Shown in pieces: positions 13,173 to 23,665 of a stretch of 58,148 bases of DNA. The stretch lies in NCBI GenBank assembly GCA_964488685.1, contig CAZAVY010000008.1:1-58148 (forward strand). Direction: 5' to 3'. The notes below the pieces were generated by a model. It was not told where the DNA came from, ran no database searches, and saw nothing but the letters and a program-made list of their open reading frames with translations. The first letter of the stretch is position 1, and each line of letters begins with the position of its first letter. The translations under genes and the position numbers were made by a program. Origin of the DNA: an uncultured Gammaproteobacteria bacterium (GTDB taxonomy: Bacteria; Pseudomonadota; Gammaproteobacteria; GCA-001735895).

Positions 13173-14462
13173 TTACGAGCGTAGGTTTCCGTCACCGAAA
13201 ACGACATACTTCTGGGATGTCAAACCTTGCAGGCCAACGGGGCCGCGCGCATGCAATTTATCGGTACTGATGCCAATTTCGGCACCCAACCCGTACTCGA
13301 AACCATCGGCAAATGCGGTCGACACATTGACCATGACTGAACTCGAATCCACACGCCGTAAAAATTCCCGGGTATTGCCGTAATCTTCGCTGACAATCGC
13401 ATCGGTGTGCTGTGAACCGTAGTGATCGATATGCTCGATTGCCTGTTCCAGACCATCGACGATACGGATCGACAGGATCGGAGCGAGGTACTCGGCATAC
13501 CAGTCGTCTTCGCCGGCGGCCTTGATGATTATATTGTCGAATTGACGGCTGCGTTCACAACCGCGTAATTCGACTCCGCTGGCCGACATGCGTTGGATTA
13601 TCTCCGGCATTACACTGGCCGCGATCTTGTCCGCGACCAGCAGTGTTTCCATCGCATTACAAACACCGTAGCGCCTGGTCTTGGCATTCAGCGCTATTTC
13701 GATCGCTTTTACCCGATCCGCATGATCGTCGATGTATACGTGGCAAACACCGTCAAGATGCTTGATTACGGGTATTTTTGATTCGGCGGCAATCCGTTCG
13801 ATCAGGGCTTTGCCGCCCCGCGGAATGATGACGTCGATGCAATCCTGCATTTTCAGCATCTGTCCCACCGCTTCGCGATCGGTGGTATTGATAACCTGGA
13901 CCGCGGCTTCGATCAAACCAGCCTGCCTCAAACCTTGCCGGATGCATTGATAAATCGCCTGGTTGGAATGCAGCGCTTCCTTGCCACCCCTCAAAATACT
14001 GGCGTTTCCGGATTTAAGGCATAACGCAGCCGCATCGATAGTCACATTAGGACGCGACTCGTAAATAATACCGATGACACCCAGCGGCACCCGCATCTTA
14101 CCAACCTGAATGCCGGAAGGTCTGTAACGCAACCCACTGATCTCCCCAATCGGATCAGCCAGACCCGCCACCTGTTGCAAACCTTCAATCATTGCATCGA
14201 TACGACGCGGGTCCAGCTCCAGGCGTTCGAGCATCGCAGCGCTGATCTGATTTTTATCAGCAGCATCGAGATCCTTGCTATTTTCCTGCAAAATGAAGTC
14301 GCGGCGTTGATCCAGAACGGCGGAAATCTCGAGTAACGCCTGATTTTTATGTTGCGGTCGAGCATATGCCAAGGTCGCAGCCGCCTCTCGCGCAAACTGC
14401 CCGAGCGCCATCATATACTGACACAAATCGGTTCCGTATTCTTTTTGTAGTGCAACGCTCAT
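13173..14462 (-). CDS. proA: Gamma-glutamyl phosphate reductase
   Basis: [45 protein letters not shown]. Confidence 0.98.
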
Positions 14463-15475
14463 AATCTATTACCCGTATCAGCACTGAAGCCGGCAACCAG
14501 CGATCTAACCTCGAACCAGTCCTGGTCGGGGAAATCACTGTCCTGCTGCCCTTTTCCCAGCCGGTCTAATGTAGCACAGCTTTGTAACAAACGCTCAATC
14601 TGTGATGTGCCCAATCGAGCTAATGCAGACTGATAAAGCCTTTGCTTATTACGCCAGATACGCAGTTCCTGCCAGATTCGATCGGCAATGGCACCGTTAC
14701 GCTGTACCTGTTTGAGCCGATCGAGTTGTTCCAGTGAAACCTGTATCGCCCAACGCAATTGTGGCGTCGCATACCCTTCCGCTTCGAGACTGCCCAGTAT
14801 CCTGAGCGCACGGCCGGTGTTGCCGGCGAGACAGGCATCGACCAGTAAAAAATGACTGTAACGTGCCGACTGTGCGACCGAGGCTTCGATGGTTTCAAAA
14901 TCGACCGTTTCCCGGTCGCCGAATCTTATCGAAAGTTTCTCCAGCTCCTGGTCCGCCGCCAGCAGGTTACCTTCGGTGCGTTCCGCCAGGAACTGCGCCG
15001 ACTGAGGGTCGATTAGCAGCCCTTTCAACTTCGCGCGTTCTACCAACCAGCCTGCCACCTGGTTGGGGTAAATCGGTTTCAGCTCGACTATCTCACCCGC
15101 CGCCTGAATCGCTTTGCACCAAGCCGAATTCCTGGTTTGCCGATCGAGGCTTGACGCTACGATGATGTACACATTGCCATCGGCCGGATTTTCACACAGG
15201 TTCTGGATGACCTTGCTACCCGGTTGCCCGGGCTTACCGCCGGGCATGATCACGATGCGACATTTTAGATCTGAGAATAACGACATCATATCGCCCTCTT
15301 CCAGCAACTCTTGCCAGTCGAACCCGATATCGCTCTGAAACGTCAAAATATCTTCGAATCCGGCTGCGCGTAGCGCAGTCCGCGCCTCGTCGAGCCAGTC
15401 CCGGGTTAACAACAGCTCGGCACTGGCGAGCAGATAAACGGGTTTGAGATTTTGTGTAATCCGGGATCCTCGCAT
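14459..15475 (-). CDS. holA: DNA polymerase III subunit delta
   Basis: [28 protein letters not shown]; length and context typical. Confidence 0.92.
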
Positions 15476-15591
15476 GGCGCGAATGTTATCACACTACCCG
15501 TGTCACCCGGTCATCCCTGCGCATGCCGATACCTCGGAAGGACGGGATTGTGGTTATTTACCGAACAGGATACTGATGCCGACCCTGAATT

Positions 15592-15624
15592 AAAAAGGTC
15601 CCCGGCCGGGGAGGCGCGAGGACC
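15592..15624 (-). terminator. Rho-independent terminator
   Basis: Minus strand GGTCCTCG-cGCC-tcccc-GGC-CGGGGACC GC-rich hairpin followed by TTTTT. Confidence 0.7.
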
Positions 15625-15763
15625 CCAAGATTGACTGCTTTCTTCATCCAACGGCATCCAGCAAGGCTTCCTGCCTTTGATGCGTGGGACCAAATCCTAC
15701 GACATCTCCGTTACCCGATTCCTTTCAAGCACGAGTACAAGTCTACTCGCAGAGATGCTCCAG
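15592..15763 (-). ncRNA. Putative CsrB/RsmXYZ-type CsrA/RsmA-sequestering sRNA (~170 nt)
   Basis: Seven GGA motifs between a putative TSS and terminator, one as AAGGC-AGGAA-GCCTT hairpin loop; further hairpins CGAGTA..TACTCG and GCATC..GATGC; upstream GacA-type box; 5' end estimated. Confidence 0.6.
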
Positions 15764-15810
15764 CCCTAGCTTGTACGGCGGTTCCGTTTGTAGTCTCGGG
15801 CGCCAGTTTA

Positions 15811-15828
15811 TGTAAGATTTGTCCTACA
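15811..15828. promoter_or_regulatory. GacA/UvrY-type binding palindrome
   Basis: TGTAAGATTTGTCCTACA, one mismatch to TGTAAG-N6-CTTACA, about 50-65 nt upstream of the GGA-rich RNA on the minus strand. Confidence 0.65.
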
Positions 15829-15832
15829 ACAA

Positions 15833-17044
15833 TCAGATGTCACGCAAACCGTCAGAAGGTTCGATACCGGCAGCACGCACACCACCCAGAATAGCCGCTA
15901 AAATTGCTATCCCGACTGTCAACCCCAGGGCCCACAGAAAATGCTCGGGGAGCAGGAAACACAGGGCTCGATCAAGATTGAGTCGGGGAACCATGAAAAA
16001 ATTAATCAGGTATTCGAACGCAAGATAGACCAGTACCGCGAGCAGCCAACCGAGCAATGCGGTATAAAAGGACTGCAGTACCGGATACATAACGATGCGC
16101 CCGCTCTTGAAACCGATCAATCTCAATACACTGAGATCCCTGCGCTTGCGATCGACGTTTGCCAACAGGCTGGCGCCCAGGGAGAAAGAGAATCCGATCG
16201 CGCCGACACAGGCAATAATCCAGAATAGTACCGACAGGTTTTGATCGATAGATTGTACGGTGTTGATTTCGGCGATATTCGCCTTGATACGCACGCCTTC
16301 CGCTTCGAGATCACTGACCAGGTTTTCGACATCATAGATCGAACCTGCATAGAGTCGAAACGACGGATATATCCGGGCCGCCATTTCGTCACTGTTACCG
16401 CCCCAGCCGAGCGCCGCAACCGCGCGTCCGTCCTTGAATTGCTCACTCGCGACCAGCAGATCCAGATTGACAAAAGCGACGTTGCGCGAAGTGACCGCGG
16501 CATCGGCGATAGCGATGACATTGAGCGGCAGGTGTACCCGTTCGCGTTTGCCCTGGTACTGTCGGGCAAGGCTGGCGTCGATTTCATCATTAACCTGGAC
16601 ATTCAGCTTTTTTGCCGCTGCCCAACTCAGAATAACCTGATTATAGTTCGCCGGAACCGGAGTCGATTCGATAAGAATGGGATCGCCCGCCGCGGTTGCA
16701 AGTAATTCGGTAGACAGGATACGTTTGGCTGTTTTGCTATTGAGTTGAATAGTGGCTGCCAGCGCACGGGTTTTCGGGATAATAAATTCAACATCGCCAC
16801 GTTGACGAAATCGGTCGATCCAGCTGTCATCGTAACGACCACTGCCGATTGGCCTGATTTCCCGGTTCGCTGGATTTTCAACCAATTGGTGAATCATGCT
16901 GCTGACAATGCCAAACTTGAGACCGAACAGAATCATCATCGGCGCCAGTACCGAGGAAAGGGCCAGGATGAAACAGCCTGACATCCGCCATTCGTGGCTA
17001 TAATCACGGAAGCTAAGGCGGATAATGTTAGTGATTTGTACCAT
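15833..17044 (-). CDS. ABC permease (FtsX/MacB-type), TagS-like
   Basis: N-terminus RDYSHEW...VLAPMMILFGLKFG...NPANREI resembles P. aeruginosa TagS; C-terminal FtsX domain RKRRDLSVLRLIG, AAGIEPSDGLR. Confidence 0.85.
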   Translation of the reverse strand: MVQITNIIRLSFRDYSHEWRMSGCFILALSSVLAPMMILFGLKFGIVSSMIHQLVENPANREIRPIGSGRYDDSWIDRFRQRGDVEFIIPKTRALAATIQLNSKTAKRILSTELLATAAGDPILIESTPVPANYNQVILSWAAAKKLNVQVNDEIDASLARQYQGKRERVHLPLNVIAIADAAVTSRNVAFVNLDLLVASEQFKDGRAVAALGWGGNSDEMAARIYPSFRLYAGSIYDVENLVSDLEAEGVRIKANIAEINTVQSIDQNLSVLFWIIACVGAIGFSFSLGASLLANVDRKRRDLSVLRLIGFKSGRIVMYPVLQSFYTALLGWLLAVLVYLAFEYLINFFMVPRLNLDRALCFLLPEHFLWALGLTVGIAILAAILGGVRAAGIEPSDGLRDI

Positions 17045-17769
17045 CAGTCGCTGAATTTCGATTGATAGATCTTGCCATCTTCAACCGCCTCGGCCTCCTG
17101 ATTAAGGGTTCGCAATTCCATTTTGTAAACATGCGCCCAATCGTGGCTGGCGGTAATCAATGTAATTTTGAGTCCGCGAATAACTTCCATCACCACGGCC
17201 ATAATTTTTTGCGCGGTAATTGGATCCAGGGCGGAAGTTGGTTCGTCCGCAATCAGGATCGATGGACGGTGCGATAGTGCTCGCGCGAAAGCGGCGCGTT
17301 GACGTTCGCCGGCAGAGAGCAAGCCGGGCAACTTGTCGAGCTGCCGATCAATGCCGAGCACCCTTGAAATCGAGTTGATCGAGTCATCATCGGGCAACTT
17401 GAGCAGTTTACGGGGTAAATCAATATTCTCGCGTACCGTGAGGTAAGGCAGCAAGCCACCCGACTGCAACACATAGCCGATATGCTGTTTGCGAATCTGG
17501 GATAGCTTGTTTTGCCGGTTGCGTTGCCAGAGCCTGGCAACATCATGGCTGTCACCATCTACCGGATGCAAATCCCAATGCTCGCTTTGATCCGGGCGTA
17601 AAATCAGGGCGAGCATATCCAGCAAGGTACTCTTGCCGCATCCACTATGCCCGATCAGTGCGATATTTTCCTGCGCGCTGATTTTAATATTGGGAACCAC
17701 AAGCCGAAATCCGACACCGTCGATGAGCCGCTCCTTGACGACATTCTTCAACGAGTAAATTACAGTCAC
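17044..17769 (-). CDS. ABC ATPase, TagT-like (LolD/MacB class)
   Basis: Walker A GHSGCGKST, IGYVLQSGGLLPYL, LSAGERQR, ADEPTSALD. Confidence 0.9.
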   Translation of the reverse strand: MTVIYSLKNVVKERLIDGVGFRLVVPNIKISAQENIALIGHSGCGKSTLLDMLALILRPDQSEHWDLHPVDGDSHDVARLWQRNRQNKLSQIRKQHIGYVLQSGGLLPYLTVRENIDLPRKLLKLPDDDSINSISRVLGIDRQLDKLPGLLSAGERQRAAFARALSHRPSILIADEPTSALDPITAQKIMAVVMEVIRGLKITLITASHDWAHVYKMELRTLNQEAEAVEDGKIYQSKFSD

Positions 17770-17784
17770 GAAGGTAACGGATCG

Positions 17785-19740
17785 CTAGGGCAACAGATCG
17801 AGTGCAACCGGGAAAACCGAATTACCGTTAACCGGCCCGCCACCCGGGGTAACCCACAGATCGGTGTGATCGTGCAATGCCTGGTAGTAGTTTATCTTGC
17901 TCTCCAGCCGATACATAAATTCAATCTGTACCTTGGCCGACCATTCCTCCCAGGTTTCCAGCGTCAGGTTCATGACCTCCCCGGTATAGGGTAGATCCTC
18001 GATATATTCGCGCATATAACCCATATCGGCGAGATTTTCACCAGCCCCGGAGGTGCTGCCTGCAACCGCAGACGGATCTCGACTAACGGTCGCGGCAAGA
18101 CTCTTAAGGTCATCGATAAAACCCTGCGGGCTGAGAACGCCCTCTTCGGCGAGTTCCAGCACCTGCTGCAGGACATTCTTAAGATCACTTAACTGATCGC
18201 GGGTGAGCAATACCCGCACATCGACCGCCGAACGTTCCGGGTTGATGAAGTCACGATCGACCATCCAGGCGTCAAATACGGTGGGAATCGGCTGCCCCGA
18301 CCGCTTCTGGATATAACGCATGCGTAGTGCGTTCCCGAGTTTCGCAATCCGATCCTGAAGCCGCGCAAGTTGCGTCTGCTCTGCCTCCTGCGGCTGTATT
18401 TGTATCGGCGGCACGCCATTGGTAGTGGCCAGAACTTGCTGAGTAATCTGGTTCGCCAGCACTTCAAGCACGCGACCAAACTCATCCACCTGGCCGAGGC
18501 TCACGCCATAGTAAAAATCACCGATGCCGGGATAATATGACAGTTGTTTATAGAGAATTTCTGCTTTCTCATGATCTGCCGCCTCCGACGGGGTACGCAA
18601 ATGAAGGACCCAGATCGAGACGCCCTTGTCAAAGGCGAACTGGCGTAATGCCTGGGCGCTGAGGCGAGTTGCACCCAGAGAATCATGGCTTTCACGTGGA
18701 CCCGCATCGGTGATCAGCACCACGTAACGGGCGTCAAACTGATTCCAGTCTGAATCTTCGATTGCCGATTTGATGCCCGCATAAGCATCCTCGCGGAAAT
18801 CCCTGCTGGATACATCCGACGGGCTCAGTGAATTGACGAGATCGAGAAACTGTCTGGCATCGGTACCCTGCTCAAGGTTGACGTAAGGTTGCGTCAAATA
18901 CTCAAGCTCGGGCACCTGGTCAATATTGTCGCGATAGGCGGTCAGGCCAAAACTGACCTGATTGGACAGCCCCTGCTTTTTTATCGCGGAGTAAACCTTT
19001 TCTACTGCTTCACGGGTTCGATCGATATAGGGCCCCATCGACTGGGTGGAATCGATGACAAAGTGAATTCCACTACGATAACTGCGATTGATCAATTCGG
19101 CGGTGACGGCTGCCGTAACCGTGGTTGCATCTTCCAGTGGAACACTGGCGATTTCAAGCAGACGCGCCTGTTCGTTACCGAGGTATACGTCTTCGTGTTG
19201 CTTGATCGGGACCAGGTAGAAGTTATCCCGAATTTCGAGATGGGCCTCCGGCTGAATCGCAATAACCGGAGAATCTTCAGGAATCTCGTTGTTTACAATG
19301 GCATCATAAAGCGCCTGGTAGCCATCCTTGTCATAGTCGCTAACCAGTTGCTCCAGGTCAGCTTTATTTTGAAACATCATGACCCGCTGAATATCCTGGG
19401 GGTCTTTGAAAGAAACGGTCAATGCCTGGTTCCAGACTATGGCCTTGTTTGTTTTAACCCAGCCCGCAGTTTGTCCAAAACTGTCGTAACCCACCTTGAT
19501 CCAGTCACTCCCCTTTTCATAAACATACAGAACGCTGAAAGGGGTGACCTGGCTCGATTCCGCCGACTCGGTCGGCATCTCATAGAGGCGCGCATCCGGC
19601 ACGCTTAGGACCCGTTGAAAGAGCGTTTTTTTGCCTTCCATCAACAGCGGTTTACCGGCCGCACTCAGGCTCACGGTAAACGTGACCAGGAAACTCACCA
19701 GCAGCAGTTTAAACATCGATTGACCGGGTTTTTTGTTCAT
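17785..19740 (-). CDS. Secreted vWA-domain protein resembling the periplasmic part of T6SS kinase PpkA, without a kinase domain
   Basis: Signal peptide (..VSLSA-AG); PLLMEGKKTLFQRVL start typical of PpkA ectodomains; MIDAS-like VIDSTQSM, ITDAGP; no Hanks kinase motifs. Confidence 0.8.
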   Translation of the reverse strand: MNKKPGQSMFKLLLVSFLVTFTVSLSAAGKPLLMEGKKTLFQRVLSVPDARLYEMPTESAESSQVTPFSVLYVYEKGSDWIKVGYDSFGQTAGWVKTNKAIVWNQALTVSFKDPQDIQRVMMFQNKADLEQLVSDYDKDGYQALYDAIVNNEIPEDSPVIAIQPEAHLEIRDNFYLVPIKQHEDVYLGNEQARLLEIASVPLEDATTVTAAVTAELINRSYRSGIHFVIDSTQSMGPYIDRTREAVEKVYSAIKKQGLSNQVSFGLTAYRDNIDQVPELEYLTQPYVNLEQGTDARQFLDLVNSLSPSDVSSRDFREDAYAGIKSAIEDSDWNQFDARYVVLITDAGPRESHDSLGATRLSAQALRQFAFDKGVSIWVLHLRTPSEAADHEKAEILYKQLSYYPGIGDFYYGVSLGQVDEFGRVLEVLANQITQQVLATTNGVPPIQIQPQEAEQTQLARLQDRIAKLGNALRMRYIQKRSGQPIPTVFDAWMVDRDFINPERSAVDVRVLLTRDQLSDLKNVLQQVLELAEEGVLSPQGFIDDLKSLAATVSRDPSAVAGSTSGAGENLADMGYMREYIEDLPYTGEVMNLTLETWEEWSAKVQIEFMYRLESKINYYQALHDHTDLWVTPGGGPVNGNSVFPVALDLLP

Positions 19741-19748
19741 TAAATCAC

Positions 19749-20339
19749 CTATCGAAAATTAAGCAGCAACTGCCTGGCATACGGGTTTCCGAGTTCTGCT
19801 TCTGTATTCGCCCATCGCTGTAAACTGCTAACGCGTTCACTAGCGGGCTGGTATCCCATCGAAGCGGCTTTTCGATACCATTTGTAGGCCTGGATAGCAT
19901 CGGCACTATCCAGCAGCGAACTCTCGGCACGAAACAGCATCGGATCGGACATCTCGGCCATTTTCATAATGGCCGGCACATGATCTTCCCTGGCAGCAAA
20001 AAAAAACATGATATGCGCATCGGCGAGGCTACCTTCCTGCCGGTACGCTTGCGCTTTTTCAAAAACGGCCGTTAATGGGTAAGGTTTACCATCATTACGC
20101 AATTGTTCGATGTCCTGGCGTGCCCGCATACCCGGAGGTACCAACAGGCTACGTTCTATGGTGCCGGAGGTTTCACCGGAGTCAGGCGATTCGGTCGACT
20201 CACCGGGCGCGATGTCTGTCACCGGGCTAACCCGGTCACCGCTGACAAACACGAATATGATAAGGCCGATGATCGCCAACGCGATCCAGATTAATGGATT
20301 TCGGCCGACAGATGATCCAGTTTGCTTCAATTCAGACAT
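19749..20339 (-). CDS. Single-pass membrane protein with Sel1-like repeat
   Basis: TM NPLIWIALAIIGLIIFVFV, S/T/P/E-rich linker, AIQAYKWYRKAASMG Sel1 motif. Confidence 0.8.
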   Translation of the reverse strand: MSELKQTGSSVGRNPLIWIALAIIGLIIFVFVSGDRVSPVTDIAPGESTESPDSGETSGTIERSLLVPPGMRARQDIEQLRNDGKPYPLTAVFEKAQAYRQEGSLADAHIMFFFAAREDHVPAIMKMAEMSDPMLFRAESSLLDSADAIQAYKWYRKAASMGYQPASERVSSLQRWANTEAELGNPYARQLLLNFR

Positions 20340-20446
20340 TTTATTTTTTAGTCCAAGTCCGAACCGCAGTTTGCCTGCTAGCCGGCAAATTTGTTGCGGG
20401 CAGCAAAGCCCGGTGCAAGCCTGGCAAACAAGGTTGGATCGGGTGA

Positions 20447-20475
20447 ATTATAAACACTTGTTGTCGGCGGGTAAA
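20447..20475 (-). promoter_or_regulatory. Putative sigma70 promoter of the Sel1-vWA-ABC operon
   Basis: Minus strand TTTACC-17 nt-TATAAT, about 110 nt upstream of the 20339 start. Confidence 0.5.
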
Positions 20476-20491
20476 TTGATGTCCCCATTAA

Positions 20492-20675
20492 ACCCGGGAA
20501 ATTCATAAATCATGCACAATTTCGCTAGACATCATGTTTTAACTTCCCTGTCGAAAACATGAAGTCTGATGTTTTCGACAAGAATGGTTCCAGAAAAAAG
20601 CGTTCTATAACAATTCGTTGCAAGTTAAAACATATCAGCCCGCATTTCTCACCCGGATTTATGAATTTCCCGGGT
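20492..20675. repeat. 184-bp nested inverted-repeat element
   Basis: Perfect 20-bp IR 20492-20511/20656-20675 (ACCCGGGAAATTCATAAATC); perfect 12-bp IR 20534-20545/20622-20633; perfect 12-bp IR 20549-20560/20569-20580. Confidence 0.9.
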
Positions 20676-21172
20676 CAAATTCGTTTCAACTGCCGTATGA
20701 GCTTTTCAAACAGGCCCTGTTCCAAATTTTCTAGCATACGGGCCTTTTGCCGCGATGAGGATAGCAGGTTGTCGTCATCGAGCACGATATCTTCCTGCAG
20801 CAGCAGGGTTTTGGTGGGCGCGAGCAACCCCCCGTCGGCGGACTTCAGGTTGAAGGTCAGGCTGCGCGAAAGTCGCTCTACCGTTTTACCGTTGCTGGCA
20901 CTGGAAACCAGCCTGCGATCATCCAGGACTTTTAGCGACACCATCAACAATACCGCTTTCGAATCTTCGTGGCTGACGAGACGTGCCCCGGCGCGGATCA
21001 ACTGCAGTTGCAGCGCTTCCTGTTGTCGCTGGCTAAGATCACTGGTTTGCAGGACTATCGAGGACAGGTCATCCGGCAGTTCGGTGGTACCAGCCAGTTG
21101 ATAACCACAGGAGGCGAGGCTTAATCCTGCAACCAATACAAACCAGAAGCGAATGATATCGGGTCTCAGCAT
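20675..21172 (-). CDS. lptE: LPS assembly lipoprotein LptE
   Basis: Lipobox LASC-GYQL, directly downstream of leuS. Confidence 0.88.
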   Translation of the reverse strand: MLRPDIIRFWFVLVAGLSLASCGYQLAGTTELPDDLSSIVLQTSDLSQRQQEALQLQLIRAGARLVSHEDSKAVLLMVSLKVLDDRRLVSSASNGKTVERLSRSLTFNLKSADGGLLAPTKTLLLQEDIVLDDDNLLSSSRQKARMLENLEQGLFEKLIRQLKRI

Positions 21173-21217
21173 AATTTCGGCTTATTCCGGGGGCGCATTG
21201 TTGAGGCAAAATACAGG

Positions 21218-23665
21218 CTAGACAACAATATTGACCAGTTTTCCAGGCACAATTATGACTTTCTTTACCGGATCATCCCCGATGAATCGATTGACCTGTT
21301 CATTTGCCATCGCGGTGGCTTCGCAAGTGTCGCGATCGGCGTCGGCGCCAATCAGCATCTTGCCGCGTAACTTGCCATTTACCTGGATCACCATCTCAAT
21401 GTGTTCCTGTACCAGTGCGGTTGCATCGACTTCTGGCCAGGGGTGATCGATGATCACCGATTCATGGCCCAGATCCCGCCATAAGCGGTGGCAGATATGT
21501 GGAATTATCGGAGCCAGCATCAGCACAATGTTATCGAATACTTCCTGGCGGATCGCCCTACCGGCGGAGGTGTCATCCTGGTATCGCGAGACACTATTGA
21601 GCAGTTTCATGTTGGCCGCGATTGCGGTGTTAAAGGTTAGTCTACGATCATAGTCATCGGTTACCTTTTTTATCGTCTGGTGCAACTTCAAGCGCATTGC
21701 CTTCTGCTCGTCATTGAGGGTTTCCATATCGAAGATGGCTGGTTCGACACAATCAACCACCTGCTCCTGTACCGCCGACCACAGGCGTTTCAGGAAACGA
21801 AAGGCCCCCTCGACCCCGGAATCCGACCAGTCCAGCGACTGTTCCGGTGGCGACGCAAACATGATGAACAGGCGCACCGTGTCGGCACCGTAGCGGTCGA
21901 TTAAATCCTGCGGGTCGACGGTATTACCCTTGGACTTCGACATCTTGCTACCGTCCTTCAGCACCATCCCCTGGGTTAGCAGGCGCTTAAAGGGTTCGCT
22001 GGATTCGATCAGGCCTTCGTCACGCATCAGCTTGTGATAAAACCGTGCATAGAGCAAATGCAATATCGCGTGCTCGATACCACCGATATAGAGGTCGACC
22101 GGAGACCAGTAACCGGCTCGTTCATCGAGCATTGCCGCGGCTTGATCGGGACAGCTGAAGCGCTCCTGATACCAGGATGACTCCATGAAAGTATCGAAAG
22201 TATCGGTTTCACGCTCAGCCGGTCCAGCGCATTGTGGGCAGGTTATGTTCTTGAACGAGTCCATTTTTTTGATCGGTGAGCCGATACCTTCAAATTCGAC
22301 TGCTTCGGGCAATACCACCGGTAAATCAGCTTCGGGGACCGGCAACATGCCGCAGCCGTCGCAGTTGATCACCGGTATCGGCGCACCCCAGTAGCGCTGT
22401 CGTGACACGCCCCAGTCTCGCAAGCGGTAATTTACCTGGCGGCTGCCTTTGCCCCGGCTCTCGATGTGATCGGCGATACGCTCGAACGCCGCTTCGAATT
22501 CGAGCCCGTCGAGAATTTCGGAATTGCAACAACGGCCTTCCTTGGTGACAAATGAGCCCGTGTCGAGATCTATCGGCGAACCGTCTGCCGGTGCAACCAC
22601 TTGACGGATTTCGATGTGGTACTTGCGTGCAAACTCCCAGTCGCGCTGGTCGTGACCCGGAACCGACATTATTGCACCGGTGCCGTAGCCCATGAGCACA
22701 AAGTTCGCGATCCAGATTGGAATTTGCTCACCGTTGACCGGGTTTACGGCATTGATTCCAAGTGCCATACCGAGCTTTTCCATCTTCTCGAGCGCAGCCT
22801 CGGAGATATTCATTTTCCGACAGGTTTCAACAAATTCAGCCACTTCAGGGTTATCCGTCGCAGCGGCAAGCGCCAATGGATGCTGGGCTGCGATCGCCAT
22901 GAAAGTCGCGCCATACAGCGTGTCGGGACGCGTGGTGTAAATCATCAGCGGGTCATGCCCGGGAACCTCGAATTCGACTTCCATGCCTTCTGAACGCCCG
23001 ATCCAGTTACGCTGCATGGTTTTAACCTGTTCAGGCCAATCAAGCTGCTCCAGATCGTCCAGTAGCTCTTCCGCGTAATCGGTAATTTTAAGGAACCACT
23101 GTGCAATTTCGCGGCGTTCGACCTCGCTATCGCATCGCCAGCAGCGCCCTTCGATGACCTGTTCGTTAGCGAGCACGGTCTGATCAACCGGGCACCAGTT
23201 GACCGGCGCCGTTTTCTTATAGGCGATTCCTTTTTCCATCAGTCGAGTAAACAACCATTGCTCCCAGCGATAGTATTCCGGCTTACAGGTGGCGAGTTCG
23301 CGATGCCAGTCGTAGCCGAAGCCGAGCAATTTCAATTGCCCGCGCATATAGTCTATGTTCTGGTAGGTCCAGCTTGCGGGCGGCACATTGTTTTTGATCG
23401 CCGCATTTTCAGCCGGCATGCCAAATGCATCCCAACCCATTGGCTGCAATACGTTAAAACCGAGCATGCGTTTAAAACGCGATATTACATCGCCGATGGT
23501 GTAGTTGCGTACGTGACCGATATGCAATTTACCACTGGGGTATGGAAACATGCACAGACAGTAATAACTTTCACGAGCCGGGTCTTCGTCGACTTCGAAA
23601 ACCTGTTCGTCAGCCCAGAATTGTTGCGCTTCAGCCTCCAGTGTTTGGGGGTCGTATGTGTCCAT
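21218..23665 (-). CDS. leuS: Leucine--tRNA ligase
   Basis: HIGH (LHIGHVRNY), KMSKS, editing-domain TTRPDT; true start likely MDTYDPQ at 23665. Confidence 0.99.

Follow-up and report, generated by a model that had tools for sequence, protein, structure and literature searches.

A minimal four-gene cassette between lptE and holA encodes a predicted secreted homologue of the PpkA ectodomain and a TagT/TagS-type ABC pair

The 58,148-nucleotide contig CAZAVY010000008.1 of an uncultured gammaproteobacterium (assembly GCA_964488685.1), which was analysed over its whole length and is referred to here as the window, carries four co-directional, tightly packed genes on its minus strand between lptE and holA. 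In this order, they encode a Sel1-repeat transmembrane (TM) protein, a von Willebrand factor A (vWA) protein, an ATP-binding cassette (ABC) ATPase and an FtsX-type permease (Table 1). An earlier note on this DNA had recognised the arrangement and linked it to the envelope-sensing arm of a type VI secretion system (T6SS); the layout is borne out domain by domain. We find that the last three genes are homologous to the periplasmic half of the T6SS kinase PpkA and to the ABC pair TagT/TagS, that the same core recurs in three genomic settings, and that the minimal cassettes are under strong purifying selection. The minimal four-gene form is what is new; the larger srf/tag neighbourhood was already known.

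Proteins encoded by the cassette

Gaps of 8 nt and 15 nt separate the first three genes and the permease start overlaps the ATPase stop by 1 nt, so that the four genes look like a single operon. Their base composition does not differ from that of the flanks. Searches of the whole window by tblastn found no homologues of TssK, TssL, TssM, TagF, PppA, TagR, TagQ, SrfA, SrfB or SrfC (Fha was not queried). This agrees with the earlier view of a locally complete unit free of tss, tagQ, tagR, pppA and srf genes, which holds equally for the flanks of the other minimal loci described below. NCBIfam contains no specific model for the cassette proteins, all matches lying far under the cut-offs, and PADLOC returned only generic P-loop matches for the ATPase and none for the other three proteins. 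An anti-phage defence system was considered and rejected, given the negative PADLOC result and the housekeeping, vertically inherited contexts of the cassette; a decaying remnant was rejected on conservation (gene order kept across loci, low rates of nonsynonymous substitution, dN).

As judged from hydropathy, the vWA protein starts with a cleavable-looking signal peptide, and it lacks a lipobox Cys. Pfam detected VWA families only, with VWA itself at gathering score, and no kinase domain. Residues 19-651 align to residues 369-992 of PpkA from a Pseudomonas fluorescens locus (L109) at 34% identity (E 1e-104), which substantiates the suspected kinship to T6SS machinery. The periplasmic vWA-containing ectodomain of PpkA is thus represented, whereas the N-terminal Hanks-type kinase and the TM helix are missing; for comparison, PpkA of L109 and the proteins P0135 and P0155 carry Pkinase at E 1e-35 to 1e-48. 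Judged by these alignments, the window protein corresponds to a PpkA ectodomain minus the kinase, with a predicted signal peptide in its place.

An AlphaFold2 (AF2) model of the vWA protein, based on a 59-sequence alignment (pLDDT 74, pTM 0.49), is multi-domain, with a beta-rich N-terminal domain (residues ~30-200), a vWA domain (~223-440) and a helical C-terminal domain (~457-651). Foldseek recognised the vWA core alone, matching it to the integrin alpha-M I-domain (TMt 0.72, E ~2e-7), and left the N- and C-terminal domains unmatched; a PDB sequence search with the protein gave no meaningful match. A motif of the metal ion-dependent adhesion site (MIDAS) type, DxTxS...D, is present as DSTQS at residues 230-234 plus D345. 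D230 is invariant and S234 nearly so in the 59-sequence set, and D230 is nearly invariant in a 27-sequence set; D345 is invariant, as are M235 and P651. Sequence and predicted fold are accordingly those of a vWA/integrin I-like domain with a putative MIDAS-type metal site. The N-terminal motif PLL..GK..QRV is invariant or nearly so in the stand-alone family and closely similar in kinase-fused members; together with the terminal L-P (Table 1) it is a candidate docking motif.

Metagenomes hold ~2000 close homologues of the vWA protein. Several homologues of ~650 amino acids (aa) are called 'serine/threonine-protein kinase PpkA' by the Joint Genome Institute (JGI) despite their short length. When a library clustered at 50% identity was searched exhaustively, 1320 family representatives were obtained, nearly all of which align over residues 25-651; most are ~650 aa long and a few ~1000 aa, and kinase-less forms dominate. 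Among the long members, Pfam identified an N-terminal Ser/Thr kinase in P0135 and P0155 and an ExeA-like AAA_22 ATPase in P0123. The ectodomain of P0123 (L144, 667-3792) is 47% identical to that of the window, the AAA_22 domain is N-terminal, and there are no ABC genes nearby; the fusion shows the periplasmic module with yet another, third type of cytoplasmic partner. Because the ectodomain is found fused to a kinase, fused to AAA_22 or on its own, it behaves as a portable periplasmic module.

The motifs of the ATPase are intact in translation (Walker A GHSGCGKST, signature LSAGERQR, Walker B with the catalytic Glu ILIADEP, H-loop SHD). Its best NCBIfam matches are the ModC, LolD, YbbA and FtsE families, all under their cut-offs (117.9 bits against the LolD model, cut-off 307.75), and the permease reaches 22.7 bits against the lolCE model (cut-off 362); by these scores the pair falls outside the LolCDE equivalogs. 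In the comparison with the proteins of L109, the ATPase shares 44% identity with TagT (E 2e-56) and the permease, along its entire length, 39% with TagS (E 2e-85), whereas for the solved LolE, LolF, YtrF and MacB sequences in the PDB the match to the permease reaches only E 1e-4 to 0.4. TagT and TagS are therefore closer than Lol/MacB-type proteins, and the labels 'TagT-like' and 'TagS-like' proposed in the earlier note are specific ones, beyond a shared COG.

Hydropathy places the TM helices of the permease at residues 24-42, 272-290, 325-343 and 361-389, with a periplasmic domain of ~230 aa between TM1 and TM2. The AF2 model of the permease is of low confidence (pLDDT 60, shallow alignment) and its fold matches were used as support only; the top 43 Foldseek matches are all LolC, LolE, MacB, YbbP, YtrF, BceB or FtsX. 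With a four-TM FtsX-type permease, a large periplasmic domain and a separate LolD-like ATPase, the pair belongs to the type VII ABC superfamily (LolCDE, MacB, FtsEX, BceAB, YbbAP, YtrEF). It differs from the known members in that it lies far under every curated equivalog threshold and lacks an adaptor, carrier or hydrolase partner of known type; its conserved partner is the vWA protein.

The permease fold and sequence, which lie inside the LolC/LolE/MacB group, would also suit a true Lol- or MacB-like extractor or exporter, in which a dedicated lipoprotein, a lipid or the vWA protein itself would be taken out of the inner membrane or the periplasm and handed on to the outer membrane or to vesicles. 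A recent preprint (10.64898/2026.09.18.752743) indeed calls the srf-linked permease LolF-like and suggests toxin processing and vesicle export. We regard such a function as unlikely, since the cassette contains no LolA/LolB-like carrier, MacA-like adaptor or TolC-like channel, the vWA protein has no cysteine for lipidation, the permease scores far below the LolCE cut-off, and TagTS, the sole studied relative of the cassette, is needed for envelope-damage signalling to PpkA and not for transport of a known substrate (PMC7817224).

The Sel1-repeat protein is predicted from hydropathy to be bitopic, with ~15 cytoplasmic residues, a TM helix at residues 16-34, an acidic linker and a periplasmic C-terminal part that comprises two to three Sel1-like repeats (~70-196). 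The single window sequence stays below the Pfam Sel1 threshold (18.7 bits versus 30.7). A profile of 25 orthologues, however, matches the Sel1-repeat proteins 8sxq (5.7e-18) and 4bwr (3.3e-16) in the PDB, which on profile evidence assigns the protein to the Sel1-like repeat (SLR) family. It aligns to the C-terminal periplasmic domain of the longer Sel1-like proteins (330-370 aa) of srf-type clusters, whose cytoplasmic domain of ~180 aa is missing from the 196-aa window protein.

Table 1. Positions of the cassette genes and associated features in the window (ORF, open reading frame; sRNA, small RNA)
Feature	Position	Strand	Length or residues	Evidence or remark
lptE, flanking gene	20675-21172			
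Inverted-repeat element	20487-20680			25-nt arms, 92% complementary, 144 nt apart; nested hairpins
Candidate sigma-70 promoter TTTACC-17-TATAAT	20447-20475	-		upstream of the Sel1 gene; single match
Sel1/TM protein	19749-20339	-	196 aa	ORF
vWA protein	17785-19740	-	651 aa	ORF; Pfam VWA
vWA N-terminal motif PLL..GK..QRV	19606-19650		residues 31-45	directly follows the signal peptide (TM helix in PpkA)
vWA C-terminal end L-P	17788-17811		residues 644-651	invariant in stand-alone and kinase-fused forms
TagT-type ABC ATPase	17044-17769	-	241 aa	ORF; Pfam ABC_tran 5.6e-26
TagS-type FtsX permease	15833-17044	-	403 aa	ORF; Pfam FtsX 1.1e-08
Rsm-like sRNA region	15588-15828	-		GacA box, -10-like box, ~140-nt GGA-rich RNA, intrinsic terminator
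holA, flanking gene	14459-15475			TIGR01128, E 2.6e-67

Genomic settings, phylogeny and selection

The core of ectodomain, ATPase and permease was found in three genomic settings. In P. fluorescens (L109), Pfam reads the gene order as tssK-tssL-tssM-tagF-pppA-ppkA-ABC_tran-FtsX-FGE-sulfatase-glycine-zipper lipoprotein (FGE, formylglycine-generating enzyme), which is a canonical H1-type T6SS locus with ppkA-tagT-tagS-tagR-tagQ. The kinase-fused protein P0155 is 68-76% identical to proteins in 80 genomes, mostly of Pseudomonas; the genome scan for ppkA loci was seeded with a two-sequence kinase-fused alignment, a seven-sequence version being too divergent. The srf setting has the order srfA-srfB (PF07520)-srfC (PF10139)-Sel1-like-vWA-ABC ATPase-FtsX permease-FGE-sulfatase-glycine-zipper lipoprotein-lipoprotein of ~165 aa. 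Hosts of such clusters whose stand-alone vWA protein is 37-40% identical to that of the window are P. putida, P. chlororaphis, Novispirillum itersonii and an alphaproteobacterial metagenome-assembled genome (MAG), and the srfABC-associated cassette also occurs in Klebsiella plasmids, Haemophilus and Xenorhabdus. The third setting is the minimal one of the window.

In PLSDB, 114 Klebsiella plasmids carry the srf-type cluster; most are typed as non-mobilizable, and the annotations are generic. On one of these plasmids, Klebsiella pneumoniae NZ_CP029739.1 (L228, record 87911-104766), the full srfABC/Sel1-like/vWA/ABC/SUMF1-FGE cluster adjoins an IS66-family element. The longest contig is one and the same, of 215,025 bp, for two paralogous stand-alone vWA proteins, P0335 and P0356 (L060, Pseudomonas chlororaphis contig MSCT01000024.1); two or more copies of the module therefore probably coexist in some genomes.

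A neighbourhood of srfABC, tagQRST and 'ppkA' outside T6SS loci was reported in 2013 by Campbell et al. (PMC3608642), who found that most Deltaproteobacteria with srf/tag genes have no T6SS. In the 2026 preprint (10.64898/2026.09.18.752743), srfABC is described with a Lol-like ABC transporter, vWA proteins and an FGE enzyme on its flanks, and SrfA is modelled with three parts: a pseudokinase-like domain, a TM helix and a periplasmic lipocalin. The designation 'undescribed system' in the earlier note can thus be kept for the minimal four-gene form, but not for the larger srf/tag neighbourhood, which these reports already cover.

The partners of the cassette were counted by tblastn on the locus flanks in all three settings, 8-10 kb of flank being available for each locus outside the window. 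At the 59 minimal loci, TagR, TagQ, SrfA/B/C, TssK/L/M, TagF and PppA are absent throughout (0/59). At all four srf loci srfABC is joined by TagR and a TagQ-like gene, and T6SS genes are missing; the ppkA setting has TssK/L/M, TagF and PppA at 80/80 loci, TagR and TagQ at 79/80 and no Srf. The order ectodomain-ATPase-permease is constant in the three settings and in remote members (28-32% identity). Cytoplasmic partners of at least three types are coupled to the core, namely a kinase, SrfABC and an ExeA-like ATPase.

The minimal cassette can be compared with both of its larger relatives. With the T6SS version, which is part of the threonine-phosphorylation pathway of the Pseudomonas H1-type T6SS, it shares, besides the identities given above, the gene order, the four-TM permease topology of TagS and the MIDAS-type and terminal motifs of the PpkA ectodomain. 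It differs in that its vWA protein has a signal peptide instead of a kinase and TM anchor, in that TagR, TagQ, PppA and the T6SS core genes are absent nearby (Fha not searched), and in that it includes a Sel1-repeat membrane protein, which the 80 T6SS loci lack. The srfABC-associated cassette is related at 37-40% (vWA), 39-45% (ATPase) and ~35% (permease) identity. Given the shared four-gene order and the homologous C-terminal domain of the Sel1-like protein, the window genes are the exact centre of the srf cluster, stripped of srfA, srfB, srfC, the FGE-sulfatase, the glycine-zipper lipoprotein and the lipoprotein of ~165 aa. The Sel1 protein itself is 196 aa long with ~15 cytoplasmic residues, as compared with 330-370 aa and a cytoplasmic domain of ~180 aa.

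A genome scan with the vWA protein retrieved 58 loci, all in uncultured Gammaproteobacteria or Sedimenticola MAGs and all with the order Sel1-vWA-ATPase-permease, and a synteny scan anchored on proA, with 9-kb flanks covering holA, the cassette, lptE and leuS, added further cassette loci. At 48 loci the vWA protein is at least 66% identical to that of the window, and the flanks, where present, are lnt-leuS-lptE upstream and holA-proA-nadD downstream; both flanks are visible on at least 26 contigs of this group. At 11 divergent loci (vWA identity 46-57%) the cassette lies among unrelated housekeeping genes such as metH, hsp33, pdxST and hemE. In the proA-anchored scan, the cassette is present in every relative that has a ProA identity of at least 68% and sufficient DNA upstream, and leuS-lptE-holA-proA is uninterrupted in 15 more distant Gammaproteobacteria, in agreement with the earlier statement that leuS, lptE and holA are normally contiguous. 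The presence of the cassette in all close relatives and the intact operon in distant ones indicate an insertion specific to one clade of uncultured sediment Gammaproteobacteria, with vertical inheritance from then on.

In a neighbour-joining tree of concatenated ectodomain, TagT and TagS sequences, rooted on a remote FGE-linked member, all 20 of the sampled minimal cassettes form one clade, which lies outside the joint clade of srf and T6SS cassettes. The earlier suggestion that the machinery had been detached from a T6SS is not supported: the minimal cassettes are a deep clade of their own, separate from both the srf and the T6SS clades, and kinase-less forms dominate the family. As minimal cassettes are monophyletic and sit in unrelated contexts outside the clade of the window, the unit travels and persists as four genes.

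Compared with four relatives (among L001-L012), dN is 0.06-0.11 for the ATPase, 0.09-0.13 for the vWA gene, 0.10-0.15 for the permease and 0.22-0.31 for the Sel1 gene; the neighbouring genes proA, holA and lptE gave 0.11-0.18, 0.14-0.23 and 0.36-0.52, respectively. Omega is ~0.03-0.08 for the vWA, ATPase and permease genes, values that are approximate only. The identities of the cassette proteins track those of LeuS across loci. The minimal cassettes are under strong purifying selection.

The census and the tree also bear on the possibility that the cassette is a sensor arm acting in trans, for a T6SS with a separate kinase, for a srfABC locus or for unlinked TagR or TagQ elsewhere in the genome. 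Every other setting links the three-gene core to an output as well as to TagR and TagQ, the occurrence of TagR in the outgroup and in both sister clades marks its loss as the derived state, and the 58 kb of the window are only part of the host genome. Such partners are nevertheless absent within 8-10 kb at each of the 59 minimal loci. Moreover, the Sel1 protein lacks the cytoplasmic domain and the vWA protein has neither TM helix nor kinase, leaving the ABC pair alone to reach the cytoplasm, and most Deltaproteobacteria with srf/tag genes manage without a T6SS (PMC3608642). On balance, we consider an action in trans improbable.

Proposed mechanism

We assign a probability of about one half to the reading that the cassette is a self-contained, vertically inherited envelope machine, that is, a minimal module of PpkA ectodomain, TagT and TagS in which binding or release by the periplasmic vWA protein is gated by ATP and the Sel1 protein provides a scaffold. 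What the data show directly are the homologies, the order of the genes, the three genomic settings, the insertion in one clade and purifying selection; a physical complex, mechanotransmission to the vWA protein and a role in envelope surveillance or maintenance are what we infer.

Type VII ABC proteins use cytoplasmic ATP to drive work in the periplasm, which for LolCDE means extracting lipoproteins, for MacB expelling periplasmic substrates, for FtsEX activating periplasmic hydrolases and for BceAB signalling to a kinase. By virtue of its membership in this superfamily, a TagT2/TagS2 complex would couple ATP hydrolysis on the cytoplasmic side to conformational changes that are passed on to its large periplasmic domain. 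The movement of the permease would then act on the secreted vWA protein and gate the binding of a periplasmic or outer-membrane ligand at the MIDAS site, with the membrane-anchored Sel1-repeat protein as a possible scaffold or adaptor. As only the ABC pair reaches the cytoplasm (there is no kinase, and the Sel1 protein is without a cytoplasmic domain), the output would have to be periplasmic, such as binding, release or remodelling, and not phosphorylation. The order ectodomain-TagT-TagS never varies, in kinase-tethered and in secreted versions of the ectodomain alike, and is most simply explained by a mechanical action of TagT2S2 on this domain.

In P. aeruginosa, knock-down of bamA, lptD or tolB activates the T6SS, and a requirement for tagT was shown for bamA (PMC7817224). 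Several points weigh against a self-contained machine. The same study states explicitly that the nature of the signal and the mechanism are unknown (PMC7817224), and the functions that have been tested by experiment are confined to the T6SS members of the family. That the vWA protein, the permease and the Sel1 protein touch one another is deduced from the conserved adjacency of their genes. The presence of TagR in the outgroup and in both sister clades means that the minimal clade may still need TagR, TagQ or another partner encoded elsewhere, and the evidence extends to 8-10 kb of flanking DNA at each locus and, for the host of the window, to 58 kb. The neighbour-joining tree was built without bootstrap, and the synonymous rate (dS) is saturated throughout.

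A more far-reaching and distinctly tentative idea is that the cassette represents an ancestral type of autonomous envelope-damage sensor, which Pseudomonas later wired to a kinase and a T6SS. The ABC motor would switch the integrin-like vWA domain and so survey or repair the outer membrane directly, without cytoplasmic signalling or a secretion system, and in the sediment clade, embedded in the leuS-lptE-holA operon, the cassette would by now serve an almost housekeeping role.

The way in which TagQRST detects damage to the envelope and activates PpkA is an open question in the T6SS field. The present data show that the PpkA ectodomain and TagT/TagS are a portable three-part core found far beyond T6SS loci and that one clade keeps this core under strong selection without a visible partner. 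A four-gene system devoid of kinase, TagR and TagQ is the simplest available setting in which to study the action of an ABC motor on a vWA domain, and a function found for it would carry over to clinically relevant bacteria, as the srf-type version resides on Klebsiella plasmids.

Sequence elements at the ends of the cassette

The gap between the permease gene and holA measures 357 nt and contains a GacA-box palindrome, TGTAGGACAAATCTTACA (15828-15811, minus strand), which starts 4 nt past the permease stop. A -10-like box lies ~65 nt downstream of it, followed by an RNA of ~140 nt with conserved GGA motifs, for example in an AAGGC-AGGAA-GCCUU hairpin, and by an intrinsic terminator. Box, -10 element, RNA and terminator are conserved in 14 aligned relatives, and the box is present in 19 of 31 related permease-holA gaps. 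Rfam yielded no family at gathering thresholds in the window and no meaningful match at E<1 over 14000-22000, where one weak match to the archaeal eL15 leader was dismissed as chance. From its sequence features the RNA looks like an Rsm-type (RsmY/Z-like) sRNA; it is a neighbour of the cassette and lies outside it.

The adjacency of this conserved GacA-box sRNA had led the earlier note to suggest a coupling of the cassette to Gac/Rsm. The RNA gene proved to be real and conserved in the clade; the coupling is not supported, because at 13 of 13 loci with the cassette elsewhere (minimal or srf-type) the 900 nt that follow the permease lack the box. Only the lptE-holA insertion lineage shows the adjacency, which looks like an accident of that lineage rather than a functional link, and we consider the coupling highly improbable.

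At the upstream end, the earlier note had assigned the cassette a promoter of its own. The one sigma-70-like match (Table 1) is there, but the number of promoter-like sites in the region (6) is not above the expectation from shuffled sequences (5.0 +/- 1.9). Between this candidate promoter and lptE, and overlapping the lptE stop codon, lies the inverted repeat, which is unique in the window. As RNA it is predicted to fold with an energy of -74.8 kcal/mol (z -7.1). The element may act as a terminator or attenuator, or it may be a scar resembling a repetitive extragenic palindrome or a miniature inverted-repeat transposable element (REP/MITE) at the upstream junction of the cassette.

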